Below are positions 2,646 to 61,175 of a stretch of 64,000 nt of DNA, piece after piece. Under the pieces are notes generated by a model. That model searched no databases. It was given only the letters and a program-made list of their open reading frames with translations, and was not told where the DNA came from. Position 1 is the stretch's first letter; each line of letters starts with the position of its first letter. The translations under genes were made by a program, and so were the position numbers. The stretch comes from Bryobacterales bacterium (GTDB taxonomy: Bacteria; Acidobacteriota; Terriglobia; Bryobacterales; UBA6623): NCBI GenBank assembly GCA_965216215.1, contig CBDCFO010000008.1:534726-598725 (forward strand), in the 5' to 3' direction.

Positions 2646-4307
2646 ATGACACATCCGGCGCTATTGTTGCTGATTCTGGCTGTACCAGCCTACGCCCAAG
2701 TGGCAGAGGAAGGCTCTTCCAGTGTCGAGGATCCAGCCACCGCCCCCGCGGTGAAGGCATCCGTGGTGGCGAAGACCGCGAAGGCAATCAACTACCAGTA
2801 CCGCAGTGGCGCTACCAGGATCGACTTCGTTGGGACTGCCCTCATGACCGGAGCAGGGGGCGAAGCCAAGGTTGAGAGCAAGAAGGGCTACATGGAGATC
2901 CAGGCCGAATTCGACCGCCTGAAACCACCCATGCAGCTTGGCACTGAGTATCTCACCTACGTTCTGTGGTCCATCTCGCCGGATGGGCGCTCAAGCAACC
3001 TCGGCGAACTTGTTCTCGACAACGCAGGCCGGGCCAAGCTTAACGTTACGTCGGAGCTACAGGTGTTCGGGCTCATCGTCACGGCTGAACCGTATTTCGC
3101 CGTGCGTGTGCCGAGTGATCTAGTCGTCGTGGAGAACAAGATCCGAGACGGGACCAAAGGCCGTATCACGACCACCGACACAAAATACGAGTTGTTCGAC
3201 CGGGGCCAATACGAACAGTTGGCCAACCCCCTTTCGCTTACCGTTGATCTGAAGAAGATACCGCTTGACGTCTACCAGGCTCGCAACGCCCTGGTCATCG
3301 CAAAGTCAAGCGGCGCCCAGGAGTATGCCTCCGACATCCTTGGGAAAGCGATAGCAAGCATGGAGATAGCGGATCGCAATCTCAACCGCAGGTCGATGCG
3401 GAAAACTGTTATCCAACACGCACGGCAGGCCACTCAGTTCGCGGAAGACGCCCGCGAACTGAGTATGAAACGAAAGGAGGCGGAGGCGTTGGAGACGGAA
3501 CGCCGCGAGGCAGCCGCGCGCGAGACGGCCGCGCGGATACAGTCAGCAGAGGCTGAGCAGCGGCGCATAGTCGAGGAAGCAGCGCGCGCCAAAGCCGAGG
3601 CGGCGAAGGCCGTAGCCGAGGCAGCTAGGGCCACAGCCGAGGTCGCCAGGGCCTCAGCCGAAGCCGCGAAAGCGGAAGCCGACCGCAACCGGCTACGGGC
3701 CGAAGTGGCCGCGGCGAAAGCAGCCACCGAACGAGCTCAGGCGGTTGCGCAACGGGCCCAAGCGGAACTGCAGCGGGAAGCCGCCCGGCGAGTCGCGGAG
3801 GATGCCAAGCAGCAGACACAGGCAGCCGAGCGGGCGCGAATAGAGGCGGAGCGAGAAAAAGCGGAATTGCGTGCCAGACTGTTGCGGCAGTTTAACCTTG
3901 TGCTCGATACGAGAGACTCCGAACGCGGCTTGGTGGTCAATATGTCAGACGTCTTGTTCGACACGGGCCAGTACGCCCTGCGTCCGACCGCCCGAGAGAA
4001 GCTCGCCCGCCTGTCCGGCATCGTCCTGGCCTACCCCGGGCTACGCCTGCAGGCGGAAGGGCACACCGACACCACCGGCACTGAGGACTTAAACCAGCGG
4101 CTTTCGGAGCGGCGTGCCGAGGCCGTCCGCGAATACATTGCGAGTCAAGGCGTACCCGAAGAGGCAATCACGTCGACGGGCTTGGGGTTTTCCGTTCCGG
4201 TGGCCTCGAATGACACGCGAGAAGGACGCCAGCAAAACCGGCGTGTTGAGATTATCGTTTCCGGCGAAGTGATTGGCACTGCATTGGCCGGTGCCGCGGC
4301 ACCCTAG
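2646..4307 (+). CDS. OmpA-family protein with signal peptide, Ala/Glu-rich coiled-coil middle region and C-terminal OmpA peptidoglycan-binding domain
   Basis: Signal peptide MTHPALLLLILAVPAYAQ. C-terminus reads NMSDVLFDTGQYALRP...LQAEGHTDTTGTEDLNQRLSERRAEAVREYI...NRRVEIIVSG, the OmpA_C signature. Confidence 0.9.
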   Translation: MTHPALLLLILAVPAYAQVAEEGSSSVEDPATAPAVKASVVAKTAKAINYQYRSGATRIDFVGTALMTGAGGEAKVESKKGYMEIQAEFDRLKPPMQLGTEYLTYVLWSISPDGRSSNLGELVLDNAGRAKLNVTSELQVFGLIVTAEPYFAVRVPSDLVVVENKIRDGTKGRITTTDTKYELFDRGQYEQLANPLSLTVDLKKIPLDVYQARNALVIAKSSGAQEYASDILGKAIASMEIADRNLNRRSMRKTVIQHARQATQFAEDARELSMKRKEAEALETERREAAARETAARIQSAEAEQRRIVEEAARAKAEAAKAVAEAARATAEVARASAEAAKAEADRNRLRAEVAAAKAATERAQAVAQRAQAELQREAARRVAEDAKQQTQAAERARIEAEREKAELRARLLRQFNLVLDTRDSERGLVVNMSDVLFDTGQYALRPTAREKLARLSGIVLAYPGLRLQAEGHTDTTGTEDLNQRLSERRAEAVREYIASQGVPEEAITSTGLGFSVPVASNDTREGRQQNRRVEIIVSGEVIGTALAGAAAP

Positions 4308-8914: not shown

Positions 8915-9524
8915 GGTTTGGTTTCATTCCTGGAGGCAGGGCACAGGGGCTGGATCGGAGCGTCACAGTGGCCTGTCTCGTGCTGCCGACCTCTTGGCAC
9001 CTTCGGGCTGGGCCAACGCAAACATCCAGCGCAACGGAAGCTGCCGTATCCACTCGGAGCAACCGCCGAAGCGCCGAACGAATCCCTGAGCCACCACGCA
9101 CACCAGACTATCCCGGGGCGGATCGGTTGGGAAGGTGGGGCAATCCGACTCGGGGCGGCGGCCTTGTAACCGCGCTGCGCCCGGTCCGGATGTGAAGAGG
9201 CTAAGCCTCGAACCGCTCCATCGATGACCGTTCGGTTGCGTAGAGTCCGTCCGCCGTGCACGCTCAGCATTCAGGCTGGACCGGCCCCGCCGATTTTACG
9301 TTAGGCAACGCCGGCCGGTGGAATAGGGGGGGACCGGCGCGGCGTTCTGGCAGACCAGGCCAGCCACCCGCTCGGCGGTGCCGAGGTAGGTTTGACCGAC
9401 CATGCGGGGCTTGCTGGTGACGATGCAATGGATCGGGCTGGTTGCCCTTTCTTGGCGACGGTGGACAGCATACAGGCTAATCCAATCGGGATAGGGGGAA
9501 GCCTCACGGCTCCACCCCTCCCAC

Positions 9525-9556
9525 ACCACCGTACATACGGGTCCGTATACGGCGGT
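9525..9556 (-). ncRNA. Group II intron domain V
   Basis: ACCGCCGUAUACGGACCCGUAUGUACGGUGGU folds by hand into a 9-bp lower stem, a 2-nt 3'-side bulge (UG) and a 4-bp upper stem plus loop. It starts 14 nt after the IEP stop. Confidence 0.7.
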
Positions 9557-9569
9557 TCGAACGGTGATG

Positions 9570-10949
9570 CTACTTCCGGATCTGGAGTCGCGGCAGGCCG
9601 AGCGAGGCGAAGTAGGCGTTAGGCAGTGCATAAGAAAGAGCGGGGCTTGCGGCCAAGCGCCAAGGGCCGTGGGCGCTGCCAGCAGTTCGAGCCGCCAGCC
9701 CTACACGCACATCCCTGCGACGCAGTTCCACGTATCTCCGCCTCCCACGTTTCCACTGTTTCCAGATCGCCGACCGCAACCTTCGCCGGGTCCACCCCTC
9801 TAAGCTTGCCAGCACGTATGGCGTTTCGCACTTCCCGAAATAGCCGAGCCATCCCCGCCAATAGCGGGCTATGTCCTCGACCATCCGTTCGTGGCTCACG
9901 CCCCGAGTCCGTCGCGTCAGCTCGCGCACCCGCCGCCGAAACCGCTGCACCGCTTGCGGTGCAATCCGCCGCTTCGGTTGTGGGTCCGATGACAGGCTGA
10001 AGCCCAGGAACTTCCGCTCCCATGGCCGCGCCACCGCGCTCTTGCTCTGATTCACCCGCAAGCGGAGCGTCCCGGTGATGAAACGCGTCACGCTTTCCAT
10101 CACGCGTTCCCCGGCCCGGCGACTGCCCACATAAATGTTGCAGTCGTCCGCGTACCGTGCGAACCGCAGCCCGCGTCGCTCCAGCTCCCGGTCCAGCTCG
10201 TCGAGCACGATGTTCGACAGCATGGGTGAGAGCGGACCCCCTTGCGGGGTCCCCTCATCCACCGGGCTCACCAGCCCGTCCTCCATCACACCGGCCGTCA
10301 GGAATGCCCGGACCAGCTTCAGCATCCGCTTGTCACCGATCCGTCGGGCCATCCGGGCCATCAAACGGTCGTGGTTCACTCGATCGAAGAATTTCTCCAA
10401 ATCAAGATCTATCACCCATCGCCGACCCGCAGCCATTTGCCGCTGGGCCGCCTCGACCGCCTGATGCGCCGAACGCCTCGGGCGAAACCCGTAGCTGTGT
10501 TCGGAGAACGTCCGGTCCCAGTGCTCCTGCAGGACCTGGGCCACCAACTGCTGGACGAATCGATCCAGCACCGTCGGTATGCCCAGCTTGCGCCTGCCTC
10601 CGCCCGGCTTCGGGATGTACACCCGTCTCACCGGCTGCGGTCGGTAGGTCCCGCTCAGCAGCTGTTCCCGGATGGCCGGCCAGTGCTCGCGCAGGTGCCC
10701 GGGCAGATCGTCGACGGTCATCCCGTCCACCCCCGGACTCCCCCGGTTTCCCCGGACTCGTGCCAGCGCCCGCTTGCAGTTGCTCCGCTCGCAGGCTCGC
10801 TCCATCCACTGTTCGTCTCTAGCCGGGCTTTCGTCCCGACGCCTCGCCGCGCTCGATTCGGTCCCTTCCCCGGCCACTTCCGGGGCTTCACCCCTTCCAT
10901 CGACCGGGAAGGCCAGCACTAGCTGGATGTTCTGCCGCTTTCCGCTCAC
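9570..10949 (-). CDS. Group II intron reverse transcriptase/maturase (no obvious HNH endonuclease domain)
   Basis: Motifs GSPGVDGMTV, RRVYIPKPGGGRRKLGIPTVLDRFVQQ, SYGFRPRRSAHQA, GTPQGGPLSP, FARYADDCNIYV and the maturase X region RYWRGWLGYF. Confidence 0.95.
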   Translation of the reverse strand: MSGKRQNIQLVLAFPVDGRGEAPEVAGEGTESSAARRRDESPARDEQWMERACERSNCKRALARVRGNRGSPGVDGMTVDDLPGHLREHWPAIREQLLSGTYRPQPVRRVYIPKPGGGRRKLGIPTVLDRFVQQLVAQVLQEHWDRTFSEHSYGFRPRRSAHQAVEAAQRQMAAGRRWVIDLDLEKFFDRVNHDRLMARMARRIGDKRMLKLVRAFLTAGVMEDGLVSPVDEGTPQGGPLSPMLSNIVLDELDRELERRGLRFARYADDCNIYVGSRRAGERVMESVTRFITGTLRLRVNQSKSAVARPWERKFLGFSLSSDPQPKRRIAPQAVQRFRRRVRELTRRTRGVSHERMVEDIARYWRGWLGYFGKCETPYVLASLEGWTRRRLRSAIWKQWKRGRRRYVELRRRDVRVGLAARTAGSAHGPWRLAASPALSYALPNAYFASLGLPRLQIRK

Positions 10950-48577: not shown

Positions 48578-50029
48578 ATGCAAACAGAGACAAGCATGGA
48601 TCATTCCGACTACCGCGACATTTCGACGAGGCGCCATTTCTTCCGGTACTGCGCCGGTGGGCTCGACACGGCCGCCTTGGCGTACCTCGTCGGCAGCCAT
48701 GCCAGCGCTGTCGCCGCGGACGTTCCGCCCAATCCCCTAGCACCGAGGCCATCGCATTTCGCGCCGAAGGCAAAGAATGTGATTTTCCTGCTCATGGCCG
48801 GGGCGCCCAGCCAGATCGACCTCTACGACCCCAAGCCCGCTCTGCAGCGCTGGCACGGCCAACCGCTGCCCGAGTCGATGACGAAGGATCTCAGCTTGGC
48901 GTTCGTCAAGCCGAGCGCGAAAGTGCTTGCCAGCCCCCGGGTGTTCCGTCCCTATGGCGAGAGCGGCACCGAGTTCTCGGACTACATTCCGCATATCGCT
49001 TCTCGCGCCGACGACATCTGCCTCGTGCGCTCGATGCATACCGAGGCGTTCAACCACCATCCCGGTCAATCGCTGCTGATGAGCGGCAGCGTGCAGCTTG
49101 GGCGCCCAACCGTGGGGGCATGGGTTTCCTACGGTTTGGGCAGCGAGTCCGAGAACCTTCCCGCATTCGTCGTGCTGAGTTCCGGACGCGGGTCGAGCGG
49201 CGGGTCAAGCAATTGGTCCAACGGGTTCCTGGACTCAACCTACCAGGGAGTCGTCTTCCGCAATACCGGAGAGCCGATCCTCTTCCTGAAGAATCCCCCC
49301 GGCGTCAGCGAGCGCACACAGCGAGCCCGTCTCGATGCCATCCGCAAGCTGAACGAAGAGCGGCATGCGCAGACAGGTGACGCCGAGATCGCTTCGCGGA
49401 TCCAGTCGTATGAACTGGCGTTCCGCATGCAATCGGCGGCCCCGGAACTGCTCGACTTCACCGAGGAGTCCCAAGCGACGCTGGACATGTACGGCGTCGG
49501 CAAAGAGCCCACGCATCCGTACGCCACGAACTGCCTGCTGGCGCGGCGAATGGTCGAGAAAGGCGTTCGCTTCGTGATGCTGGCGCACGCCAGCTGGGAC
49601 GATCACCAGGAAATCGACAGGAAGCTCGGCAAGAACTGCGCGATCACGGATCAACCGGCGGGCGCACTGCTGAAAGACCTAAAGCAACGCGGTCTGCTGG
49701 ACTCGACACTAGTCGTCTGGGGCGGCGAATTCGGCCGCACGCCCATGGGGCAATTGGAGCGAGTCGACGAAGCAGCGGGAAGGGATCACCACGCCAAGTG
49801 CTTCAGCGTCTGGATGGCCGGCGGCGGTATTCGAGGCGGACAGGTCATCGGCAAGACTGACGAACTCGGTTTGGGCATCGAGGAGGATCCCGTTCATGTG
49901 CACGACCTGCAGGCGACAATCCTGCACACGCTGGGGCTGGACCACGAGCGCCTCACCTATCGACATATGGGCCGGGATTTTCGGCTGACCGACGTAGCCG
50001 GGACGGTCTTGTCCCAAGCACTGTCGTAG
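48578..50029 (+). CDS. DUF1501 (sulfatase-fold) protein with Tat signal
   Basis: STRRHFFRYCAGG twin-arginine region. Motifs NVIFLLMAGAPSQIDLYDPKP, GGEFGRTP and GRDHH. Confidence 0.9.
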   Translation: MQTETSMDHSDYRDISTRRHFFRYCAGGLDTAALAYLVGSHASAVAADVPPNPLAPRPSHFAPKAKNVIFLLMAGAPSQIDLYDPKPALQRWHGQPLPESMTKDLSLAFVKPSAKVLASPRVFRPYGESGTEFSDYIPHIASRADDICLVRSMHTEAFNHHPGQSLLMSGSVQLGRPTVGAWVSYGLGSESENLPAFVVLSSGRGSSGGSSNWSNGFLDSTYQGVVFRNTGEPILFLKNPPGVSERTQRARLDAIRKLNEERHAQTGDAEIASRIQSYELAFRMQSAAPELLDFTEESQATLDMYGVGKEPTHPYATNCLLARRMVEKGVRFVMLAHASWDDHQEIDRKLGKNCAITDQPAGALLKDLKQRGLLDSTLVVWGGEFGRTPMGQLERVDEAAGRDHHAKCFSVWMAGGGIRGGQVIGKTDELGLGIEEDPVHVHDLQATILHTLGLDHERLTYRHMGRDFRLTDVAGTVLSQALS

Positions 50030-50043
50030 ACGTCCGATTCGAC

Positions 50044-50883
50044 GTGCGCCGCTTCCCTCGACTCGGTGCTCTTGGCGTCGCCACCGTCGCAGCTGCCTTG
50101 GCACAGGGCGTTGTCAGGCCACCCGGCGTTGACTCCGAACCCGCCGGAATCACGTCGGTTGCGAATGACACCGAGATTATCGAGCGAACCCGCCGCATCG
50201 CGCTGGCGTACACCGACAACCTGCCAAATTTCATTTGCACGCAGGTCAGCCGCAGTTTCGGTGATCCCTCCGCCGACGGCTCCGCCTGGGAGCAGTACAG
50301 GGAGGTTGTCGCCGAGGTCCGTTACGTCGGCAAGCAAGACTCCTACCGCACGCTCACTGTCAACGGCCATCCGTCCAACGTAGAGTTCAAACTTGTCTCG
50401 CCATTCATCGGCGCGTTCGGAACCGCTCTTCGGCAGATGTTCCGGCCGGAAAGCAAGGCCGAGTTCGAGCGCACCGTCGACGCCGTCATAGACGGGCGCG
50501 GGGCGTACGTCTTTGACGTGGTGCTGCCGAAGCGTCACCGCGGCGGCGGGGCACTCTGGCTTGGGCACGACAGGTCCGGCGCGCGAATACGGGAAATCCA
50601 TGTCGGCAGCAGGGGTCAGGTCGCAATCGAGATGGAAACGGGCCGTGTGCTGTGGATTGAGAGCAGCGAAGCGCTGGGTATCCCACCCGACTATCCTGTC
50701 CGTCAATCCGGCTTCCGAATCGCCTACGGCTACGTGACAATCGGTGACGGCACCTACTTAGTGCCCGTGCGGGGGTGGAATGCCACCCGCACGACCCGGC
50801 CCTCTTCCTTTCGAGACGACATCGAGTGGCGCGACTGCCGCAGGTTCGATGTCGAATCGGAGCTTACCTTCGAGTCCAAGTAG
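50044..50883 (+). CDS. Secreted hypothetical protein
   Basis: GTG start 15 nt after the DUF1501 stop. Signal-like RRFPRLGALGVATVAAALAQG. Coding-like composition. I recognise no family. Confidence 0.5.
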   Translation: MRRFPRLGALGVATVAAALAQGVVRPPGVDSEPAGITSVANDTEIIERTRRIALAYTDNLPNFICTQVSRSFGDPSADGSAWEQYREVVAEVRYVGKQDSYRTLTVNGHPSNVEFKLVSPFIGAFGTALRQMFRPESKAEFERTVDAVIDGRGAYVFDVVLPKRHRGGGALWLGHDRSGARIREIHVGSRGQVAIEMETGRVLWIESSEALGIPPDYPVRQSGFRIAYGYVTIGDGTYLVPVRGWNATRTTRPSSFRDDIEWRDCRRFDVESELTFESK

Positions 50884-51332
50884 GCGAACCAATGCTGATC
50901 CCCGATCCGGAAAGCCGAGCAAATGATCGGGATCTCGAGTCACGGACCTGAAGTGAGGAAATCCGCCGGAGTCGGTCCTCGTATCTTGTGGATCGCATTT
51001 GGACATAGCCATCAACCGGCCGAAGTAAGTCGACGAGTCCGAAGGCCGGGGCAACCAGGCCAAGCGATTCAATGCAGGGAAGGCCGACGCCAGCGTTCGC
51101 GACCGGCAACTGAGTTGGATGACGGCCCAGCTCAACTTCGGGGTTCCGCGGCATCCCGCTCCGATCCTCGATCCGTAGGCAACGATCCCGAATGTCTTCG
51201 GGCTTGACCGCGAGCAACTCACCGATCGGCTCTTGGCACCGGTCTGGCGCAACCGGGGTTGGCGAGGCTCTCACGCGAGATCACTTCAGTGCCGTCTGCA
51301 ACTCCACCGACGCTGTAGGTGGGGGCTGGGTA

Positions 51333-53150
51333 TCATTCGCGCCGGAGCGGATCGATTGCAGCCGCGGACTTGGCCAGCCGGACAAGATTCGTGAATTCGG
51401 CGCGATAACCAAAGTTGTCCTCACCCCTCGTGCTCATGGCCAGTCCAATCACGTCGTCATAGCTCAAGTCCCCGGTGTAGCGGCCCCCGCGCAGAAGTTG
51501 CCCGAAGCCGGCGACGGCGGCGGAGAATCGGGCTTCCTGCGAGACAATGCCGGATTCGGCGATTTCGTCGGCCTGGGTGACCGGTCGAGTGATGACTTCG
51601 CTGGTATCGCTGCCTGGAGCCTTGAAACGGATCTTGAGAAACGCATACTCCCCCGAGAAGGCACTGTCAGGCAAGGCGGGCTCGCGCTGGTAGCGAAGGT
51701 CTCCTACGAGCGCTGCTCCCGACCCCGTCGGCGTCAGTTCGTAGATTGCGGTCACTGTGTGGCCGGATCCTATCTCCCCTGCATCGACTTTGTCGTTGCG
51801 GAAGTCCTCGCGTGCCAGCATTCGGGACTCGTAGCCGATCAACCGATACTCCTGGATCAGCTCGGGATTGAACTCGATCTGAATCTTGACGTCGTTAGCG
51901 ATTGGGAACAATGTCGAGGTGACTTCCTCGACCATTACCTTGCGCGCTTCCATCAGGTTGTCGATATAGGCGGCATGGCCGTTGCCGTTCTGGGCAAGGG
52001 CCTGCATCAGGGCGTCGTTGTAATTGCCCCTGCCAAAGCCGAGCACTGACAGGTACACTCCTTTCTCGCGCTTCCGCTCGACGAAACTCTTTAGTTCTTC
52101 CGTGTCAGTGATGCCGACATTGAAATCACCGTCAGTGGCGAGGATCACGCGATTGACGCCGTCCTCGGCAAGGTTTTGATCAGCGAGCAGATAGGCTTGG
52201 CGGATCCCTTCCGCTCCGGCCGTCGACCCGCCCGCGCGGACGCGTTCGAGGGTGGCAAGGATCGTGCCCCGCTCTACGGCCTTAGTCGGTTCGAGGGCGA
52301 CGCCTGCCGAACCTGCGTAGGTGACAATCGCCACCGTGTCATCCGGAGCGAGCGAATCGAGCAGGAGCTTGAATGAGTTGACCAGCAACGGCAGCTTGTT
52401 TGGAGCCCTCATGGATCCGGAAGTGTCGATCAGGAAAACCAGATTCGCAGGCGGCGGACTGGCCTGATCCAACTCATAGCCCTTGATGCCGATGTGCAAG
52501 AGCCGGGTGCCGGTGTTCCACGGCGTCGGCATCAGCGAAGCGGTAACTGAAAACGGCGAGCCGCGATCTTCGGGGACTGGGTAGTCATAGGGAAAGTAGT
52601 TGATCAGCTCCTCCACCCGCACTGCGTTCTTTTGGGGCAAGACGCCCTGTTCCAGTGAGGCGCGCACGAAGCTGTACGAAGCAGTGTCAACGTCGATCGA
52701 AAAGGTCGATACCGAGTTTTCGGCTACAACGCTGACTGGACTCTCTGGGAAGTCGGTGAAGCGATCTCTTCCCTGTTCTCGAATCCACGCGGGTCGGATC
52801 TCCAGCCTACGTGCGCTAGGCTGTGGGCTCACAAAGGAGCCTAGGGTACCCCCAACGACTCCAGACGGCCTAGGACGGTTGGCAGTACGGAGCGGCGGGG
52901 CGGGTGGCGCAGCGGCTGCTGGTCTCGCAACAGCTGCAGCCTTCGAATCGGCTGTTGGTGTCGCGACCACTGCGGGCTTCGCATCTGCTGCCGGCTGTGC
53001 GGCAGCTGCTGGCTCCGCCGCAGTTTTTTCAGTGGTTGCTTCTTCTTTCGGCCCCGGTGGAGTTTGGACAGCCGAAGGCTGATTCATGGAACTACATGCA
53101 GCGGCCCAGAGCAGCGCAACACAGCACAACGAAAGCAGCCCCCATTGCAT
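51333..53150 (-). CDS. von Willebrand factor type A protein (YfbK-like: vWF_A N-terminal + vWA + DUF3520), lipoprotein
   Basis: Start at MQWGLLSLCCVALLWAAAC (lipobox), then an Ala/Pro-rich linker. Motifs STFSIDVDTASYSFVR, RVEELINYF and the MIDAS NLVFLIDTSGSM. Confidence 0.85.
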   Translation of the reverse strand: MQWGLLSLCCVALLWAAACSSMNQPSAVQTPPGPKEEATTEKTAAEPAAAAQPAADAKPAVVATPTADSKAAAVARPAAAAPPAPPLRTANRPRPSGVVGGTLGSFVSPQPSARRLEIRPAWIREQGRDRFTDFPESPVSVVAENSVSTFSIDVDTASYSFVRASLEQGVLPQKNAVRVEELINYFPYDYPVPEDRGSPFSVTASLMPTPWNTGTRLLHIGIKGYELDQASPPPANLVFLIDTSGSMRAPNKLPLLVNSFKLLLDSLAPDDTVAIVTYAGSAGVALEPTKAVERGTILATLERVRAGGSTAGAEGIRQAYLLADQNLAEDGVNRVILATDGDFNVGITDTEELKSFVERKREKGVYLSVLGFGRGNYNDALMQALAQNGNGHAAYIDNLMEARKVMVEEVTSTLFPIANDVKIQIEFNPELIQEYRLIGYESRMLAREDFRNDKVDAGEIGSGHTVTAIYELTPTGSGAALVGDLRYQREPALPDSAFSGEYAFLKIRFKAPGSDTSEVITRPVTQADEIAESGIVSQEARFSAAVAGFGQLLRGGRYTGDLSYDDVIGLAMSTRGEDNFGYRAEFTNLVRLAKSAAAIDPLRRE

Positions 53151-54028
53151 GCCTCTGGGCAGCTTCCCGGTGCTCCGGCTGGATGGGAGCGGCGAGGCTG
53201 GTGTACCCGAGCACAGCTGAGATGATTTGGCAGACTCGCCCGCGACGACGGCCTGGAACCAATTGAGAAGAGTCGGCGCTGCCGACTGGCGTGATGCGCG
53301 GAAACGTGCCCCCCAACGCGGCATTGAGTGTCTCATGCCGTAGTAGACACCCTAAGACTGCAAAACGTTCCAAGGGTGAACGTTGCCCTCGTGCGGCGGC
53401 TCCGTCGTATCCCCGCACCATTCTGGATGGGGTCTGCTACCCGGATCAGACGAGCATTTGGGTAATCACAATGCAGGATGCTCGGTATCGCCCGGTCAAG
53501 GCTGCGAAGATCTCGCCGTGCTCCGCCGCCGCAAATGGTTGCAACTGCGATTGCGCGCTGCCATGCCGTGTTGTTCGCTGCATGCACCTTTTTGTGAGCC
53601 AGTCCCTGTGACGACATTGAACCTCGAGTCCCCCTGAGTGCCCGCTCTTCGCCGGAGTGGTCTTAGGCATCGTGCGTGAATATGATGGCCGCTTAGATAC
53701 CGATGGAGCGGCCACAGCAATCGAGGATCGTGTCCCGGGAGGGGTGCGTGTTACCCAATATCCCCGCGAACTGGCTTGTCGTCATCTCAGTCGAACTTCG
53801 AATCGAATACAATCACAGATTCCAATTCCGAGCCACGGGTGGCCTCTATCACTCGGGGTGACCGACGAGATATGCGAGGTTGCAAGTGCCCGTCAATCCT
53901 TGTCACTACGCAGTCGGAAGACCGTCCCAGACGCCTCCAACCCGTCTTCGTCCCGGACAGGCATCCAAATCACGTGGCTGCTGTTCCCGGCAGCGCCAAG
54001 GATGAGGAATCATATGATCGAAATATTA

Positions 54029-54058
54029 TTGACACACGACATTCGTAGACCATATGAT
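54029..54058 (+). promoter_or_regulatory. Sigma70-like promoter of the three-gene operon with flanking CATATGAT motifs
   Basis: TTGACA (54029-54034), 18 nt, TATGAT (54053-54058). The perfect palindrome ATCATATGAT lies at 54009-18, and a second CATATGAT (54051-58) overlaps the -10. Confidence 0.4.
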
Positions 54059-54072
54059 AGACGGAGGGAGGA

Positions 54073-54459
54073 ATGAGCGCCTCCGGGAACATTCGGAAGC
54101 GCTGCCCCGGAATCGATGCGGCTACAAGGAGCCAGTTGGTTCTCCGCGCTCGCCATTCGAGGACTCGGACTGCGACGTTCACTATACAGCGGCTCACGCA
54201 TTGGCGCCCGACCGAGGTCTATAACCCAGACGGTGTGCTCGACACCCACTTCACGGACGCAACAGCTTGGGAGTTCATCGCCTCTAGGCTGGAGGCTGGC
54301 GAGGACGTGGAGGTCATGACACTCCAAAGACCGAAGGGTGCGAAGGGCTATGTCATGAAGATCGATCTGGGACCGGGTAGACCCGAACTGTACGTGAAGC
54401 TCCAGATGGGGCCGAAGAAAGTTATCGGGAGGAGCTTCCACTACTCCGAACAACGGTGA
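54073..54459 (+). CDS. Small basic protein, putative MqsR-like toxin
   Basis: GGAGGGAGG Shine-Dalgarno. The C-terminus GYVMKIDLGPGRPELYVKLQMGPKKVIGRSFHYSE resembles the terminal beta-strands of MqsR (YLKITVI..VLIVSFKE). It lies directly upstream of and overlapping an MqsA-type gene. The family call is tentative. Confidence 0.45.
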   Translation: MSASGNIRKRCPGIDAATRSQLVLRARHSRTRTATFTIQRLTHWRPTEVYNPDGVLDTHFTDATAWEFIASRLEAGEDVEVMTLQRPKGAKGYVMKIDLGPGRPELYVKLQMGPKKVIGRSFHYSEQR

Positions 54460-55037
54460 AGGGACGACGCATCATGGTACAGAACGACACGAATTGGCAT
54501 TCAGTTCACGGTGTTCCGGGTGACCTCGTCTGCCCACTGTGCGAAGGAGAGTCAATTGTCACACTACAGCATCCCGATACCTTCAACTACGGTTCCGGCG
54601 ATTCCGCCGTCACCCTGGAGGTTGACCTACCCGTTCGCCGTTGCACGGCATGCGACTTCGAGTTTGTAGACCATGAGGGAGAGCGCCTCCGGCACGAAGC
54701 AGTGTGCCGGCACCTAAGAATCCTGTCCCCAGCTGAAGTGCGTGACGTCCGGCAGCAGCACGGGATGACCAAGGCCGCGTTCGCCCAGGTCACCGGTCTC
54801 GGCGAGGCTACCCTGAGCCGCTGGGAGAATGGCGCGGTGGTACAGAACAGGGCGAACGACCTCTACCTTCGACTGCTCACCACCCCTTGGATTATGACCA
54901 AACTGCAAGACCTGTCCGCTCCCGAGCCCGCGCCCTCTGAGGGAACCGTTGTCACTGGCCAGCGATTCCGCGAGTTGGAAGTGTCCCAGAGCATGCGTCG
55001 GAAGCAGGCAGGTTTCCAGCTCCGACTTGCGAGCTGA
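54456..55037 (+). CDS. MqsA-like antitoxin: N-terminal zinc ribbon + HTH (XRE) domain + about 55-aa C-terminal extension
   Basis: CPLC...(32 aa)...CTAC four-Cys ribbon. HTH MTKAAFAQVTGLGEATLSRWENGAVVQNRA. GTGA overlap with the upstream stop (alternative ATG at 54474). Confidence 0.7.
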   Translation: MKGRRIMVQNDTNWHSVHGVPGDLVCPLCEGESIVTLQHPDTFNYGSGDSAVTLEVDLPVRRCTACDFEFVDHEGERLRHEAVCRHLRILSPAEVRDVRQQHGMTKAAFAQVTGLGEATLSRWENGAVVQNRANDLYLRLLTTPWIMTKLQDLSAPEPAPSEGTVVTGQRFRELEVSQSMRRKQAGFQLRLAS

Positions 55038-55042
55038 TCCCG

Positions 55043-56902
55043 ATGTACGTGACGACGTTCTACTCCTTCAAGGGAGGGGTAGGGAGAACTATGGCCCTCG
55101 TCAACGTCGCCGTGGAGCTTGCGCAACGCGGCCGTTGCGTGCTAGCGGTGGATTTCGATCTAGAAGCACCCGGCCTAGACACGTTCGACCTTCCCCGCCC
55201 CCCTAGCCCGGTCCCCGGCATAGTCGACTTCGTCAGCGAGTACCTCGATACAGGCCAAGCACCAGATGTCGGCAAATTCGTGTTTGAGTCGTCAGGCGTC
55301 GGAAGCAACAGCGGCGGGCTCTGGATTATGCCATCAGGGGCACACCTAGACAGCTACGCAAGCACGTTCGCGAAGATCGACTGGGGCGCGCTCTATGAGC
55401 GCCACGACGGCTACTTGCTCTTTGAAGACCTGAAAGAACAGTGGAAGGCTTATCTCAAACCGGACTATGTGTTAGTCGATTCTCGCACCGGCCATACCGA
55501 CGTCGGGGGAATCTGCACGCGACAGTTGCCCGATGCCGTCGCGATCCTGTTCTTCCCCAATACACAAAACCTGCGCGGACTGACCAAGGTCGTCCGGGAT
55601 ATCCGATCGGAAAGAAGTGAGCCCGGGAATCAAGAGATCTCGCTCCACTTCATCATGTCGAACGTGCCAGACCTAGACGACGAGGACAGGATTCTCGAGG
55701 AGAGCATTGCTTCGTTCGAGAAAGACCTAGGGTTTCGGGATCCCTTGAAAATCCATAGGTGCGACAGTCTCTCCCTCCTCAATCAGGTGATCTTCACGAA
55801 GGATCGCCCGAGAAGCCGGCTTGCCAAGGAATACCACGCCGTCACAGCGGAAATCATGCGGCATAATCCACTGGACCGTGACGGCGTCCTCGATTTCCTA
55901 GACAACGTAGCACCAACTCGACGGTTCCCTCGCTCTGGCAGACGTCGGATCCAACAGTGGAAGGAGATCGGAGATCACCTAGAGGCAGTCAAGGCAAGCC
56001 ACCGGGATGACGGACAGGTGCTCTACCGACTCGGATCTCTTCGCAACAGGTCTGGTCGTTTCAAGGAAGCCTTCGAATTGTTCGACAGGGCGATTGAGAC
56101 CGGATACCGGGAGCCAAATGTCTATCTCGAGCGCGCGCACATTCGGAGGCGCGAACTCGACGACGAGGACGGCGCCCGGCAGGATGCTGTACAGGTCATC
56201 GAATCCTCCAAGGCGTCAACAGACCAAGTGCTCCAGGCACTCAGTATCATCGGATCGGATCACCTGAAGAGCGTCGCTGGCTCGCCCGCACTGTTGGCCA
56301 AACCACCCGAGGAACTGGTGTGGATTGCCGAACAGCTCAATACATCTAAGGCCGAGGCTGAAGTCGCGATAGCCATGCTGCAACCTCTCCTGACCGCCGC
56401 TGGACTGGCAACTGAAGTGGTCAGTCAGGCCAGGCAATTGCTGGCGCTTTCATCCATCGCCGTAGGAAGATTCTCGGACGGCGTCGAGGCTATTCTGGGC
56501 GAGGGTCCAAATGTCAGCGAGATGAGGATCAATCACGCTTTCGACTACGGGATGGCTCTATGGGGCAAGAGCGGCGAGGTCACTCAAGAGCCCTTCGAGC
56601 GTGTGTTGGAGTGCAACCGGATAGAGCCTAGGGAGTCTCCGGCACCCAATTACCTGCAATGCATGGCGGTCGCTCATTGGGCCGTCGGGGAAAAGAATGT
56701 GGCGCGAGAGCTTGCAAAGAGCGCGCTCCTGGAAATTCGGCTACAAGGGGGGCGGGAGTTTAGTTGCTGGCGGTACCTTAGGGCATCAAGAACTGAATTC
56801 GTGCACGACCTTGACGAACTGTTGAGGTTGATCGGCGACGACGAGAACGCGAAACCGCGTTTTCTTTGCTCAGACCAGGGATTTCTCCCCGGACTCGAAT
56901 AG
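55043..56902 (+). CDS. ParA/MinD-type (SIMIBI) ATPase with KGGVGR deviant Walker A, fused to about 330 aa of TPR-like helical repeats
   Basis: FYSFKGGVGRTMALVNVAVELAQRG (Walker A), LAVDFDLEAPGL (A'), DYVLVDSRTGHTD (Walker B). The C-terminal half is helical repeats (e.g. VLYRLGSLRNRSGRFKEAFELFDRAIETGYREPNVYLERAHI). Confidence 0.8.
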   Translation: MYVTTFYSFKGGVGRTMALVNVAVELAQRGRCVLAVDFDLEAPGLDTFDLPRPPSPVPGIVDFVSEYLDTGQAPDVGKFVFESSGVGSNSGGLWIMPSGAHLDSYASTFAKIDWGALYERHDGYLLFEDLKEQWKAYLKPDYVLVDSRTGHTDVGGICTRQLPDAVAILFFPNTQNLRGLTKVVRDIRSERSEPGNQEISLHFIMSNVPDLDDEDRILEESIASFEKDLGFRDPLKIHRCDSLSLLNQVIFTKDRPRSRLAKEYHAVTAEIMRHNPLDRDGVLDFLDNVAPTRRFPRSGRRRIQQWKEIGDHLEAVKASHRDDGQVLYRLGSLRNRSGRFKEAFELFDRAIETGYREPNVYLERAHIRRRELDDEDGARQDAVQVIESSKASTDQVLQALSIIGSDHLKSVAGSPALLAKPPEELVWIAEQLNTSKAEAEVAIAMLQPLLTAAGLATEVVSQARQLLALSSIAVGRFSDGVEAILGEGPNVSEMRINHAFDYGMALWGKSGEVTQEPFERVLECNRIEPRESPAPNYLQCMAVAHWAVGEKNVARELAKSALLEIRLQGGREFSCWRYLRASRTEFVHDLDELLRLIGDDENAKPRFLCSDQGFLPGLE

Positions 56903-57094
56903 GCCTCCTAATCGGACACCCATTTGCTTTCATCGTCCTGCCGTTCCTGCTGGGGAGCGAATGCGCGAAGGCCCAACATCGTCAGGACGCTTCCGGCCAT
57001 GACCATTGCAGCGGTAAAACGAACCCGACCTGCCTCGCAGCACGGGTTGACAGATTTCTCTGCAACCGGACGGAGGAAGAAGCCTGCGGACGGT

Positions 57095-57244
57095 ATCCCG
57101 CTTAACCGGTTCCACGAGCCCTTCCCTCACCTTGCGCTTCCGTTGGCTCGGATTTACCTCATGCCTCGTCGCAATCTGCCACACAGTCTTTTCTCCGCCC
57201 AACGCCTCTTTCGCCACCGGCGCCTTGAAGACAGCTGTGAACTT
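57095..57244 (-). pseudogene. IS3-family OrfA (HTH) relic
   Basis: KFTAVFKAPVAKEALGGEKTVWQIATRHEVNPSQ...REGL matches F.AEFKA.VA.EAL.GEKT..QIA..HEVHP.Q...WK....EG of IS3 OrfA. No OrfB and no ends are detectable. Confidence 0.55.
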
Positions 57245-57519
57245 CCACTCGTGGCCACCGTTGACTCCGTTCAGCACTGGAGATGTCCACCCCACCGCGC
57301 TGAACGAATACCCCAATCCGCTAAGTGGCAGGACAGTCCGCGACAGAGTGCAGAGGCAAGCCGGGCCAAAATCGCCTCTCACGGGGCAATTCCCGGCAGG
57401 AGTTGGTAGTTCGATACCTTCAATGCTCGATCACCGGTTCCCGGAATTCCAGAACGAGACGCGCTCGACAGGTTTGGTCATCCTCGAAGAGGTAGCAACT
57501 ACTTGCTACGTTGAGCAGT

Positions 57520-57813
57520 ATGAGAACGGTCGAGATCAGGGTACTCGGCAGTCGGCTGACCGAGTACATACGGATGGCGTCGGCCGGAGAGACGATCCTG
57601 GTTACCGACCGCGACAGGGTGGTGGCGGAAATCCGCCCTCCCAAGGAATCAATGAGCCCGGTCTTGGGGAATGCATTGCTAGCAGAAGCCGTTCGCGAGG
57701 GTTGGTTGACGCCGCCGTCCCCGCGCCTCGAGGGCCCTCCGCCCAGGCCGAAGCCAGTCCTGCCTCTACAAGATCTCGTCGCGGACCTGGACGGCGACCG
57801 CAGCGATCGGTGA
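57520..57813 (+). CDS. Phd/YefM-type antitoxin
   Basis: MRTVEIRVLGSRLTEYIRMASAGETILVTDRDRVVAEIRPP is a Phd/YefM N-terminal fold motif. Its stop overlaps a GTG (GTGA at 57810-57813). Confidence 0.7.
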   Translation: MRTVEIRVLGSRLTEYIRMASAGETILVTDRDRVVAEIRPPKESMSPVLGNALLAEAVREGWLTPPSPRLEGPPPRPKPVLPLQDLVADLDGDRSDR

Positions 57814-57829
57814 CAGCATATTTACCGCC

Positions 57830-58204
57830 GTGGCCCCTGCGCTCCTCCTCGCCGAGAACCGGAGCACGCCGACCACCCTTTGGGAAGGGACCCTCATCAC
57901 CAGCCAATTGATCGAATTCGAATTCTGGACCCGACTGCACGCATACATGCTCGCGGAGTCCCCAGGCGAAGCGGCACACGGAATCATCGGTCGCATGCCG
58001 TTGGTGCAATTGGTTCCACCAGTGGTTGAACCCGCCTTGGACGAATTCCCTTCTCCCGTGCGCACTCTTGATGCTTTGCATCTGGCGAAGTTCGACTTTT
58101 TGTGGCGCCAAGGACAGCCGATCGAGCTTGCGAGCTACGATCGCCGAATGGCAGACGCGGCCCGCGCCCTGGGAATGCCCGTGCTGGACTTGGAAGCCAA
58201 TTGA
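57830..58204 (+). CDS. PIN-domain (VapC) toxin, N-terminus ambiguous or possibly frameshifted
   Basis: VAPALLLAENRSTPTTLWEGTLITSQLIEFEFWTRLHA...VRTLDALHLAKFDFLWRQGQPIELASYDRRMADAARALGMPV. The coupled start GTG 57810 (VTAYLPP...) is in a different frame, and the first PIN acidic residue is not encoded in the long frame. Confidence 0.6.
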   Translation: MAPALLLAENRSTPTTLWEGTLITSQLIEFEFWTRLHAYMLAESPGEAAHGIIGRMPLVQLVPPVVEPALDEFPSPVRTLDALHLAKFDFLWRQGQPIELASYDRRMADAARALGMPVLDLEAN

Positions 58205-58241
58205 TGGCCAGGACCGCCGTTCCTGGAATCGATGCCCGGAC

Positions 58242-59042
58242 CTACGGCAGGGCAAGCTCGCTGGCCCGCAGGTCCGTCACGAACCCGTGTCCTGGAGAAT
58301 GCGTGATCATGATGTCGATTTTCGCCGCGATGGCCGCCTCCTGAGGCGTTACTCCGCAAGCCCAGAATACCGGCACAACTGACGAAGGGATCTCGTCCAC
58401 GGGAGGACCGAAGTACGGGTCCCGAAGATTGGCGCCGATGGCGCTTGGATCACCGACGTGCAGCGGCGCGCCGTGATTGAACGGAAAGCGAGCGGTCACC
58501 TGAGTCGCGATAATCGCCTGCGCTGGCTGCAGCCAGCGCATGGTCACGACCATGGGGCCGCGGAAGCGCCCCGCCGGCTCCGTGGGCAACTCAGTCCGCA
58601 GCACCCACCGATCCTTCGTAGTGGGTACACCGGCATCCTCGAGCGCTTGGTCGAACGTGATTCCCGAGCCAATCAGAAACGCCACGAAATCCTCCTGCCA
58701 GAGGTCCGCGATATCCGTCGTGTCGGCTTGGCGCATTCCGTTCCTGTATACGGCGTAGCGCGGTAGGTCCGTCCTCAGGTCCGCTCCCGGGGCGAGGCGC
58801 TTGGGTTCAGCGCTGCCTGTGTCCAAGACCTCCAGCACCGGGCACGCACGTTGGTTCCTCTGGCAGTACAGGAGAAAGTCGTAAGCGTGCGCTCGGCGCA
58901 AAACGACCAGATTGCACTGGACGTAGCCCATCGCCACGCCGCGCGTCGTGCCGGAATGGGCCCCCTGGCGGCATGCCAGCCGCGCCTCCGATGGCGACCA
59001 TTGGCGCACGATGGATCCATCAACGCTCATCAGCGAATTCAC
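58242..59042 (-). CDS. DUF1445/UPF0317 putative hydro-lyase (D-glutamate cyclase-like)
   Basis: TTRGVAMGYVQCNLVVLRRAHAYDFLLYCQRNQRACPVLEV...RYAVYRNG...VAFLIGSGITFD...PMVVTMR...HGAPLHVGDP...VPVFWACGVTPQ. Confidence 0.8.
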   Translation of the reverse strand: MNSLMSVDGSIVRQWSPSEARLACRQGAHSGTTRGVAMGYVQCNLVVLRRAHAYDFLLYCQRNQRACPVLEVLDTGSAEPKRLAPGADLRTDLPRYAVYRNGMRQADTTDIADLWQEDFVAFLIGSGITFDQALEDAGVPTTKDRWVLRTELPTEPAGRFRGPMVVTMRWLQPAQAIIATQVTARFPFNHGAPLHVGDPSAIGANLRDPYFGPPVDEIPSSVVPVFWACGVTPQEAAIAAKIDIMITHSPGHGFVTDLRASELALP

Positions 59043-59234
59043 ACCATTTCAAGTATCCCATCCCGCCTTTCCGCACGAGGCGAGCGGGGCCGAAGGAGAC
59101 AGCCGGCAGCCCGGCAGCCCAATGATTGCCGGGGGGCAACGAACCATGCAAAGTGCCGTGCGAGCACAAGCCTCGTGCGGGCGAGAACGCGTTCCTCGCT
59201 CGGTTTGGCAAGCACTGGAAATCAGCTCTTAACT

Positions 59235-61175
59235 CTAGGACTCGCGGCTAGGAACCACGCTTCTAGGCCGCGTAAGCACCAGCCACAGGCCGGCTATTGG
59301 AAGCATGCCGAAGGCCCATGCCCATGGCGCGGATCCGAACGGCAGGCAGATCGCGGCGGCCGCCGCCGATCCCACGCCAAGCCGCTCGAAAACTCGCAGC
59401 GGCCGGAGCCAGTACCCGACGAGGGCTACCGCCCATCCTGCGGTACCAAGCAGCAGAGCCGCGCCGGCAGCCGCGATTTCCAGCGGATTCCCCTGGCCGA
59501 GAAGCCGAGGGTCAAACGCGAACGCGGCCGGAATTAGGAAGCAGACCAGGCCCAGACGAAACGCCTGCATGCTGGTGCGGATCGCACTGCCTCCAGAGAT
59601 TCCAGCTGCGGCATAGGAAGCTAGAGCAACCGGCGGAGTCACCATCGAGAGCACGCAGTAGTACATCACGAAGAAATGCGCGGGCAGTTCCTCAATCCCC
59701 AGATCCTTCAATGCGGGCACGAACAGGATCGCACCGATCAGGTACGCGGCAACCGTCGGCAGGCCCATGCCCATGACGATGCATCCAAGCACGATCAAGG
59801 CCATCGCGCCGATCGATGAACCGCTGCCGGCGATGAGCTGCGTGCTGAACTTCAAGGCGAGATTGGATTGGATCGCCACAGCAATGATGATGCCGATGGC
59901 AGCGATCGGAACAGCCACCTGGCAGGCTTGCCGCGTGGCGCTCTCTATGCACTCCACGAGCGTGCGTCCGACCAGCCGGCCTTCCCTGGTCGCGAAGCTC
60001 ACCGCCACGCAGCCGAGGCTCGCGAGCACGGCCGCGTAGGTGGCGGAGTACCCAGCCACGAGCAATCCGACCAACAGGGCGGGAGGAGCAAGCAGGTGCA
60101 GCCGGGGCATGATCGGCGGCTGGGCCTCGAGCTCGCCCTCCGACAAGGTTCCGATCCCGGTCTTCCTGGATCGCAAGTCCACGGAAAGGAACAGTGCCGC
60201 GTAGAAGGCCAGTGCGGGCAGGAGTCCGGCTAGGGCGATGCGACCGTAGTCAACTTGGATCATCTCGGCCATGACAAACGCCGCCACGCCCATGATCGGC
60301 GGCATTAGTTGCCCGCCCGTGGACGCGATCGCCTCCATTGCGCCGGCCATGTCGGCGGAATACCCCGCGCGGCGCATGAGGGGAATCGTGAAGACGCCGG
60401 TCCCCGCAACGTTGGCCACGGCACTGCCGGTAATGCTCCCCATCAGGCTGCTGGCTACGACTGCAGCCTTGGCAGACCCGCCGCTGTGCACGCCCGTTAA
60501 CCGGAGGCCGATGTCGATGATCAGACGCCCGCCTCCAATCGAGCCGTATACCGCGCCGAAGAGGATGAAGTAGAACACGAACTGCACCGAGGTGCCGGTG
60601 GTGATTCCGAGAATGCCGTTCAGCGACAGCGTCAGGATCTCGATGGCCTCGTCCAGTCGGAATCCCGAGAACTGCAACCAGCCCGGCATCCAGGGGCCCA
60701 GAAAACCGTACGCCAGGAATCCGATCAACACTCCGAGCAGCTGCCATCCGACGGCCCGTCGCACCCCTTCGAACAAAACCGCCAGGCACAGCAGCCCGAA
60801 GAGCATGTCGACGGGAAGGACGGGATCAACCCCTTCCATCCGTTCGGTCAAGCGCGCGGACGAGACCACGTAGTACGCCCCCATGCCCATGGCGCTCACA
60901 ACCAGGGCGGCGTCCGCCACCCTCGGGAAGAGCCCGCCTCGCTTGCCCTTGAGCGGAATCCACAAGATCAAGAGCGTCGCGGCCAGCGCCAGGTGCATGG
61001 GGCGCTCGACCAGCGGAGCCTGCGGGCTGAACAGGATGTAGACCTGGAACGCGATCCAGACCGCCCCAAGCCCGACCCTCAGGGCAGGGACGAAGCTGGA
61101 ACGAGCGGAACCTTGGGGAAGGTACGCGGCACTGTTGGTGGGCAACGGCGAGGCGTCTCGACTCGCTACAGCCAT
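59235..61175 (-). CDS. TRAP transporter fused permease (TAXI-associated, DctQM-like)
   Basis: A hydrophobic protein of about 645 aa. Start taken at MAVASRD (ATG 61175), overlapping the TAXI gene end by 10 nt. The upstream part of ORF 59235-61268 is antisense-like. Confidence 0.85.
   Translation of the reverse strand: MAVASRDASPLPTNSAAYLPQGSARSSFVPALRVGLGAVWIAFQVYILFSPQAPLVERPMHLALAATLLILWIPLKGKRGGLFPRVADAALVVSAMGMGAYYVVSSARLTERMEGVDPVLPVDMLFGLLCLAVLFEGVRRAVGWQLLGVLIGFLAYGFLGPWMPGWLQFSGFRLDEAIEILTLSLNGILGITTGTSVQFVFYFILFGAVYGSIGGGRLIIDIGLRLTGVHSGGSAKAAVVASSLMGSITGSAVANVAGTGVFTIPLMRRAGYSADMAGAMEAIASTGGQLMPPIMGVAAFVMAEMIQVDYGRIALAGLLPALAFYAALFLSVDLRSRKTGIGTLSEGELEAQPPIMPRLHLLAPPALLVGLLVAGYSATYAAVLASLGCVAVSFATREGRLVGRTLVECIESATRQACQVAVPIAAIGIIIAVAIQSNLALKFSTQLIAGSGSSIGAMALIVLGCIVMGMGLPTVAAYLIGAILFVPALKDLGIEELPAHFFVMYYCVLSMVTPPVALASYAAAGISGGSAIRTSMQAFRLGLVCFLIPAAFAFDPRLLGQGNPLEIAAAGAALLLGTAGWAVALVGYWLRPLRVFERLGVGSAAAAAICLPFGSAPWAWAFGMLPIAGLWLVLTRPRSVVPSRES

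Follow-up and report, generated by a model that had tools for sequence, protein, structure and literature searches.

The stretch analysed here, called the window below, comprises 64,000 nucleotides from a Bryobacterales bacterium (contig CBDCFO010000008.1, positions 534,726 to 598,725). It contains a compact cassette of about 2.9 kb in which three genes, named g1, g2 and g3 in this work, lie on one strand and encode a small protein, an MqsA-family zinc-ribbon/helix-turn-helix (HTH) protein and a KGGVGR-type ATPase with a C-terminal tetratricopeptide repeat (TPR)-like solenoid. The open reading frames (ORFs) and the features of the cassette and its control region are as follows.

54009-54018, no strand assigned: distal operator ATCATATGAT, a perfect 10-bp palindrome upstream of the -35 element, read from the sequence
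54029-54058, plus strand: sigma-70-type promoter from the promoter scan, TTGACA (54029), 18 nt, TATGAT (54053-54058)
54051-54058, no strand assigned: proximal operator CATATGAT, overlapping the -10 element
54063-54071, plus strand: Shine-Dalgarno-like GGAGGGAGG ahead of the g1 ATG, read from the sequence
54073-54459, plus strand: g1, 128 amino acids (aa), ORF call
54456-55037, plus strand: g2, 193 aa counted from GTG, ORF call
54531-54653, plus strand: g2 zinc ribbon (C26, C29, C63, C66), the YgiT-type finger region of TIGR03830
54723-54881, plus strand: g2 XRE-type HTH (HTH_3 and HTH_31, residues 93-130), conserved in 75 loci
54882-55034, plus strand: g2 C-terminal tail, from the conservation profile; proposed contact with g3
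55043-56902, plus strand: g3, 619 aa, ORF call
55043-55912, plus strand: g3 ATPase domain, residues 1 to about 290, with a ParA/Soj/MinD fold by Foldseek
55070-55090, plus strand: g3 deviant Walker A, K10-G-G-V-G-R15-T16, whose Arg15 takes the position of the canonical P-loop Lys
55937-56842, plus strand: g3 TPR-like alpha-solenoid, residues about 299-600, from the structure model, ending in a conserved FSCWRY hairpin

The tight packing described by the initial annotation of this DNA was recovered when its coordinates were re-read: the stop of g1 and the start of g2 overlap in a GTGA at 54456-54459, and a gap of 5 nt (55038-55042) separates g2 from g3. The start of g2 is ambiguous, as an alternative in-frame ATG lies at 54474 with AAGGGA ahead of it; with either start, g1 and g2 are at most 14 nt apart. 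There are no terminator-like sites in 53300-57600 and no Rfam RNA families in 50000-60000.

The three genes are inherited and transferred as one tightly coupled unit. A g3-based scan with one genome per species retrieved 77 loci, whose g3 relatives are 36-79% identical. With tblastn, g1 was located directly upstream at 73 of these loci and g2 at 75, with strand and spacing preserved. The g2 stop lies 2-7 nt from the g3 start in 58 of 72 loci. All-against-all clustering of the ORFs within 6 kb on either side returned only g1, g2, g3 and their shadow ORFs as conserved; the next-best flanking clusters cover at most 16 loci and reflect Binatia synteny, and no ParB, centromere-binding or other conserved fourth gene was found in this range at the 77 loci. 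The pairwise distance matrices of the three proteins correlate with r = 0.80-0.86 over 49 complete loci, a level reached in 0 of 999 permutations. The reverse scan, which started from g1 on metagenome contigs, gave the same picture, with g2 present in 41 of 41 loci with room for it and g3 in 25 of 30 loci with at least 900 nt of room; a divergent g1 (P0384) is likewise part of a trio. The linkage on which the initial annotation had staked its proposal is thus found from both ends of the operon.

Variations on this layout were also seen. At one locus (L047), about 1.4 kb is inserted between g2 (end at about 4603) and g3 (start at 6001), and at another (L057) extra MqsA-like copies lie downstream of the cassette (9313-9858 and 10186-10386).

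g2 is an MqsA-family zinc-ribbon/HTH protein. It passes the MqsA-family model TIGR03830 (70.1 bits, cutoff 61.8), scores 27.9 against Pfam MqsA_antitoxin PF15731, just below the cutoff of 30, and matches HTH_3 with E = 2e-7. PADLOC returned only weak matches to other models, all from the HTH. Across 75 loci, at least 90% retain C26, C63 and C66 and at least 70% retain C29, so that g2 shows the four conserved cysteines and the HTH by which an MqsA protein is recognised. The 569 homologs are nearly all 181-194 aa long. Beyond the HTH, g2 carries a conserved extra C-terminal segment of about 50 aa, the tail, in which, at the 75 loci, a variable linker rich in Pro and Ser leads to the conserved terminal motif RFRxLEVSxxxRRxQxxFQLRLA. 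The MqsA architecture with an additional C-terminal extension had been proposed from the window alone and holds across the family. Its family membership, together with the conserved palindromes at the promoter, suggests that g2 would serve as both antitoxin and repressor.

Some g2 homologs are longer. We considered these as possible fusions with g1 or g3 and rejected this, as they are internal duplications of HTH and tail; in P0399, P0400 and P0407 (about 295 aa), a single zinc ribbon is followed by a tandem duplication of the HTH-plus-tail unit.

The control region is conserved along with the genes. The promoter scan by itself was not above chance (2 promoter-like sites against 1.4 expected), and the window promoter, which matches 11 of 12 consensus positions, is convincing because its pattern is conserved across related loci: TTGnnn-N16-19-TAnnnT occurs at the equivalent offset in 34 of 66 related upstream regions, across phyla. 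The Shine-Dalgarno-like GGAGGGAGG lies very near the -10, so the leader would be short. CATATGAT was found upstream of g1 in 53 of the 66 related loci, and in 1.03 Mb of related-locus DNA, 80 of the 95 occurrences of TCA[A/T]ATGA fall within 200 nt upstream of g1. The operator consensus, ATCA[T/A]ATGAT, is kept across phyla and occupies the same relative place in most related loci, usually in two copies, mostly 41-42 bp apart, with the distal copy upstream of the -35 and the proximal copy over the -10. Divergent loci retain the ATCA...TGAT half-sites with an altered centre. Both the near-consensus promoter and the reading of the CATATGAT motifs as plausible operators, first made on the window, are therefore supported by the related loci. 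Paired conserved palindromes of this kind are the signature of an autorepressed TA (toxin-antitoxin) promoter to which the HTH antitoxin would bind.

g3 combines a ParA-fold (SIMIBI) P-loop domain, whose Walker A motif carries an Arg substitution, with a TPR-like solenoid. It matches NF047398, the KGGVGR-motif variant AAA ATPase family, with 168.6 bits (cutoff 90) over residues 2-187, and the PADLOC model PDC-M28B with E = 2.6e-32 over residues 4-221, that is, over the ATPase part only; it has more than 6000 homologs. KGGVGR[TS] is present in 73 of 74 loci, with Arg15 standing where the canonical motif KGGxGK[ST] has the P-loop Lys. The segments FKGGVGRT, VDFDLEAPG and VLVDSRTGHTD are essentially invariant across the 74 loci, and wherever a locus aligns at K10, D37, D39 or D146, the residue is the same. 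Because the signature Lys, the Asp residues and KGGVGR itself are nearly invariant, the nucleotide site is under strong constraint. Given what Walker A substitutions of Lys by Arg generally do, g3 likely hydrolyses ATP slowly or not at all.

The AlphaFold2 (AF2) model of g3 has a predicted local distance difference test (pLDDT) score of 81.9, with values above 90 in the C-terminal helical repeats. Foldseek matches of the ATPase domain include Soj (8jml), ParA (3ea0 and 8ray), MinD (1hyq) and NifH, with TM-scores to the target of 0.66-0.77 overall and 0.73-0.77 for Soj and ParA. In sequence, the match to solved ParA and MinD proteins is confined to the first 40 residues, so the KGGVGR clade is without a solved close relative. 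The solenoid matches the consensus TPR structures 8chy and 8bu0 in both Foldseek and a PDB profile search; for 8chy, Foldseek gave E = 4.5e-6 with a TM-score of only 0.44. Against Pfam TPR_14, g3 scores 22.3, below the cutoff of 23.5, with one repeat covered; the TPR assignment is thus sub-threshold in sequence and comes from the structure model. A link to the STAND class appeared only as a faint nSTAND_NTPase5 match in g3 homologs, not in the g3 of the window. The original description of g3 as a SIMIBI-class ATPase joined to helical repeats agrees with all of this.

g3 also occurs in shorter and longer forms. Short g3 genes of 284 aa or 409-456 aa were seen at L061-L066 (Binatia and others), L053, L055, L057, L058 and L070, with housekeeping genes (acyl-CoA carboxylase, RuvB) directly downstream. 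We considered that the sensor might have been swapped at these loci and rejected the idea, as the downstream ORFs are housekeeping genes, which makes the short forms C-terminal truncations. Long g3 homologs of about 790-800 aa were found on metagenome contigs (L083-L086; P0050, P0109, P0020 and P0064). They carry an extra C-terminal domain of about 180 aa with an R/H-N-x-L-x-H-G motif, which gave a sub-threshold match to HEPN_Apea (E = 0.07) and no PDB match, so that a HEPN identity is no more than a lead. At L083, g1 is reduced to its N-terminal half (75 aa), and the other three long-g3 loci have a full g1. Replacement of the effector at the long-g3 loci was rejected, since g1 is truncated in only one of the four.

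g3 lies within 150 nt of the g2 stop in 106 of the 115 loci with room for it, and in 99 of these 106 the distance from the first CxxC of g2 to its stop is 160-179 aa. In a g3-less lineage (L118, L122-L124), which has a full g1 and a g2 without the terminal motif, the same distance is 142-144 aa; here g2 ends about 25 residues early, and the paired operator is retained. We conclude that g1-g2 can stand alone as a two-gene module and that the presence of the tail follows that of g3. As a matter of co-occurrence only, the tail corresponds in this to the antitoxin extension of toxin-antitoxin-chaperone (TAC) systems. At L122, an AbiEi/AbiEii-like pair (246 aa and 305 aa; 2219-3873) follows directly after the cassette, as judged from translations and not from a profile.

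g1 belongs to a family that is conserved and currently unannotated. A word-index search gave 404 homologs, and an exhaustive hidden Markov model (HMM) search of 1.84 billion representatives gave 478 clusters (50% identity) at E <= 1e-3; all of the 150 best matches listed are small stand-alone proteins, and the search did not reach any annotated family. The family shares a conserved region, RPxxWRP...NPDG...FTDxxAW, and a C-terminal motif, GRSFHYS. In a diverse alignment of 85 sequences, Y107, S121 and F122 are invariant, and W44, P46, W66, P87, G89, K109, G119, R120 and H123 are at least 90% conserved. In the AF2 model of g1 (pLDDT 70.5), two helices precede a four-stranded antiparallel sheet, and residues 28-61, the most conserved loop, are poorly modelled. 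This topology is compatible with a RelE-like alpha/beta fold, in a model whose pLDDT is only 70.5.

The initial annotation had called g1 MqsR-like, a claim that found no support. g1 has no Pfam, NCBIfam or PADLOC match, and its 85 family members match no Pfam family consistently and none of the MqsR (PF15723), RelE, YoeB and HigB models at E <= 1; a stray match to PBECR3 appeared in one member (E = 0.057). Profile searches of the PDB with g1 found nothing, and hhalign gave probabilities below 1% against MqsR, YoeB and HigB templates whose sequences were entered by hand. Foldseek searches of the g1 model against the PDB and BFVD returned no RNase-toxin fold and no significant match, the best being NTF2-like or curved sheets (E >= 0.07). 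These negatives in family scans, PDB profiles, hhalign and, on a mediocre model, Foldseek lend no support to placing g1 with MqsR or the RelE/ParE superfamily. From gene order and the two-gene form alone, we presume g1 to be the effector (toxin).

The trio is spread over many phyla, including Acidobacteriota, Spirochaetia, Binatia, Gamma- and Alphaproteobacteria, Latescibacterota, Entotheonella and others. Its copies are mostly chromosomal and lie on chromosomes or contigs of Mb scale. Full trios also reside on plasmids of Rhizobium gallicum, R. phaseoli, Massilia forsythiae and Polymorphobacter, where g2 is annotated as 'MqsA family' and g3 as 'ParA family' or 'AAA family ATPase'; on the two plasmids examined for it (R. 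gallicum and Massilia), g1 is present and unannotated. Because the 23-kb Massilia plasmid encodes a separate canonical ParA of 235 aa and a partition gene elsewhere, g3 is not its partition ATPase. This, and the lack of a conserved fourth gene at the 77 loci, agree with the earlier view that g3 has no parB partner and that a partition role is unlikely. In IMG/VR, the trio and its operator were found on four contigs, one of them prophage-like, with tape-measure and tail genes a few kb upstream of the trio. The flanks of the plasmid and prophage-like copies vary.

Many trio genomes are metagenome-assembled genomes whose lineages (such as Binatia, Entotheonella, Poriferihabitaceae, Latescibacterota and Acidobacteriota bins) are frequently described from marine sponges. 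The prevalence of these lineages may only reflect the composition of the databases.

None of the defence or TA models covers the trio, and literature searches (KGGVGR, PDC-M28, ParA-like plus MqsA) found no paper describing it. It can be compared with several known systems. Like E. coli MqsR-MqsA, the cassette has a small protein first, a zinc-ribbon/XRE-HTH antitoxin second and palindromes at the promoter; unlike it, g1 has no detectable MqsR similarity, and a g2 tail and a third gene are added. The MqsA operator is an ACCT...AGGT-type palindrome, as against ATCA[T/A]ATGAT in the cassette.

The closest parallel is with TAC systems, in which HigA, HicB or MqsA antitoxins come to depend on a SecB-like chaperone through a C-terminal ChAD extension, the extension and SecB together forming a module that can be grafted, including onto MqsA antitoxins (PMC5105189). 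As in MqsRAC or M. tuberculosis HigBA1-SecB, the order is effector, antitoxin, third protein; the antitoxin may be of the MqsA family; its C-terminal extension is tied to the third gene and missing from relatives with two genes; and the core pair can occur by itself, with the extension and the third protein as an add-on module. The differences lie in the components. The third protein here is a 619-aa KGGVGR ParA-fold ATPase with a TPR-like solenoid, predicted to be nucleotide-dependent, instead of a SecB-like chaperone, and the upstream protein comes from an unannotated family, not MqsR, HigB or HicA. Of these systems, MqsR/MqsA/MqsC (MqsRAC) protects E. coli against phage T2 (PMC9519451, PMC10783111).

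A ParA/Soj-like ATPase coupled to a small putative RNase-type toxin module that it may control recalls the HEPN plus ParA/Soj dyad, a predicted TA system (Anantharaman et al. 2013, PMC3710099). The cassette differs in that the window holds no HEPN gene, a dedicated HTH antitoxin separates the small protein from the ATPase, which itself has a TPR-like solenoid. With STAND/Avs proteins and the 'inactive' MinD/ParA-like domains of VMAP conflict systems (Kaur et al. 2020, PMC7159879), g3 shares a nucleoside triphosphatase (NTPase) joined to helical repeats and a clade tied to TIR and HEPN effectors; unlike STAND/Avs, its NTPase is of the SIMIBI/ParA class, the window copy has no fused effector, and its repeats are conserved and not diversifying. 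The PADLOC PDC-M28 system is matched only partially, through its B component, the N-terminal region of PDC-M28B being different; since g1 and g2 match no PDC-M28 model, the trio is not PDC-M28.

Relatives of g3 were also seen in other settings. A Sinorhizobium chiapasense plasmid (L081, 3989-6193) encodes a 734-aa KGGVGR-TIR_2 fusion near another TIR protein. On a plasmid of Nostoc sp. UHCC 0870 (L082, 3183-6295), a gene for a 147-aa HEPN protein overlaps the start of that for an 890-aa protein combining KGGVGR with an ORC/CDC6-like ATPase; this pair adjoins hsdR of a type I restriction-modification (R-M) system and matches the dyad of PMC3710099.

On balance, we favour reading the locus as a self-contained, horizontally mobile and autoregulated three-component TA-like cassette in which g3 controls g2 through the tail. 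In the mechanism we propose, g2 dimers would bind the two ATCA[T/A]ATGAT operators, one of them over the -10, and so repress the operon, while the g2 zinc-ribbon domain would neutralise g1, the new-family effector, as MqsA does with its own upstream-encoded toxin. In MqsRA and HigBA-type operons, such action on the upstream gene product is canonical for antitoxins of the MqsA type. The TPR-like solenoid of g3 would hold the terminal tail of g2. g3 probably works as an ATP-dependent dimer switch that hydrolyses slowly if at all, and its nucleotide state would set the stability and activity of g2; alternatively, the mere availability of g3 may control antitoxin function. If stress, the loss of a plasmid or prophage, or a protein from an invading phage led to loss, titration or switching of g3, g1 would be freed and growth arrested. 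The biological role may be addiction, stress response or abortive infection, and we offer the sensor and abortive-infection role as a hypothesis.

Several observations weigh against this reading. No tool ties g1 to any toxin fold or family. The co-occurrence of tail and g3 rests on a single g3-less lineage of four contigs, and no g2-g3 or g1-g2 fusion protein, which would have proved contact, was found among the g2 homologs. With Arg in place of the Walker A Lys, g3 may not hydrolyse ATP at all. An ATPase-only g3 of 284 aa, with 63-68% identity to the ATPase domain of the window protein, is kept in six related Binatia genomes; as some lineages keep this form, the solenoid is not always needed, and the ATPase-only g3 may be functional without it. 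As to mobility, the GenBank phage collection gave no match to the cassette, and a census of the flanks at 77 loci, which took the longest flanking ORFs and is biased accordingly to long ORFs, found mainly metabolic genes and only one transposase. The same census led us to reject an enrichment in defence islands, and the island-like context seen around the window does not extend to related genomes. As with many TA modules on chromosomes, the cassette mostly occurs as an insertion by itself, not as part of a defence island.

The rival explanations differ mainly in what they ask of g3. If the locus were an anti-phage abortive-infection system, g3 would be the direct sensor, its solenoid recognising a phage protein in the way of STAND/Avs; the ATPase would dimerise and remove or inactivate g2, and g1 would be released. 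We judge this unlikely; it differs from our preferred explanation mainly in the trigger and in whether g3 is an activator or a guardian. The NTPase and repeat-sensor architecture of g3, its match to the PADLOC defence candidate PDC-M28B, the occurrence of KGGVGR ATPases in a TIR fusion and in a HEPN pair next to an R-M system, carriage by a prophage near tail genes and the precedent of MqsRAC, a proven defence system (PMC9519451), all point in this direction. The solenoid, however, is highly conserved (50-79% identity across phyla, pLDDT above 90) and not hypervariable like typical sensors; in addition, ATPase-only forms of g3 persist, and the neighbours are mostly housekeeping genes.

That g1 and a tail-less g2 persist without g3 and with the same operator, as a complete two-gene TA would, argues against g3 being the effector itself, a nucleoid- or membrane-binding ParA-like protein that would block division or DNA transactions, with g2 as regulator and g1 as adaptor or co-repressor. 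The enzyme-like conservation of g1 (Y107, S121 and F122 invariant; W44, P46, K109, R120 and H123 at least 90%) and the canonical action of MqsA-type antitoxins on the upstream product likewise speak for an effector in g1. A g3 effector would fit the lack of a recognisable toxin fold in g1, the position of g3 as the largest and best-conserved component and the occurrence of MinD/ParA-like domains among the effector-region domains of conflict systems (PMC7159879), and we consider it improbable. We regard as very improbable that there is no functional triad, with g1-g2 an ordinary type II TA and g3 a co-transcribed positioning or partition ATPase of unrelated role, as the RefSeq label 'ParA family protein' for g3 homologs, the ParA/Soj fold and the presence of the trio on plasmids might suggest. 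Against it stand the strict linkage, 2-7 nt coupling and co-evolution of the genes, the tracking of g3 by the g2 tail, the lack of a conserved neighbouring ParB or centromere-binding gene, the separate ParA and partition gene of the 23-kb Massilia plasmid, the replacement of the canonical P-loop Lys by Arg and the mostly chromosomal location of the copies.

In the window, the cassette is flanked by the following ORFs.

51333-53336, minus strand: upstream neighbour, a 667-aa YfbK-type vWA protein with vWF_A, VWA and YfbK_C domains
56930-57382, minus strand: degenerate transposase-like ORF downstream of g3, with a weak HTH_Tnp_1 match (E = 0.001)
57511-57813, plus strand: first small ORF past the transposase-like ORF, no Pfam match at E <= 0.01
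57830-58204, plus strand: second small ORF past the transposase-like ORF, no Pfam match at E <= 0.01

The YfbK-type vWA gene is divergent from g1, and its product has a long N-terminal region rich in Ala and Pro; the roughly 740 bp between the two genes hold no convincing ORF. The lower-GC region reported upstream is present as a modest dip, with a GC fraction of 0.53-0.57 across 53600-54200 against about 0.60-0.64 nearby. Downstream, the initial annotation had placed an IS3 relic and another TA. Of the former, the weak HTH_Tnp_1 match is what the profiles retain; the latter, which drew no Pfam match, resembles a Phd/VapC-type pair by eye, its second member possibly without its N-terminus.

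The trio is not a strict member of MqsRA, TAC, ParABS or STAND, and is best filed as TAC-like with a new third component and a new upstream family. It may represent a previously undescribed nucleotide-switch class of TA or abortive-infection system, TAC-like and independently evolved, in which the solenoid of a KGGVGR ATPase reads the tail of an MqsA-type antitoxin and gates g1, a toxin of an entirely new fold or family; we put this more specific scheme forward tentatively, as possible and still doubtful. If the model of g3 control through the tail holds, the TAC principle would have arisen with a nucleotide-switch ATPase in place of a chaperone, giving a new way to couple toxin release to the state of the cell or to infection. 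With its roughly 480 clusters, the g1 family would be a new group of small effectors, whose members are now called 'hypothetical' and are often unannotated. The KGGVGR ParA-like clade, which is widespread and also found with TIR and HEPN partners, would gain a testable role, in a system that is tractable by virtue of its compact size, its defined operator and its presence on plasmids of the culturable Massilia forsythiae GN2-R2 and Rhizobium gallicum R602sp.

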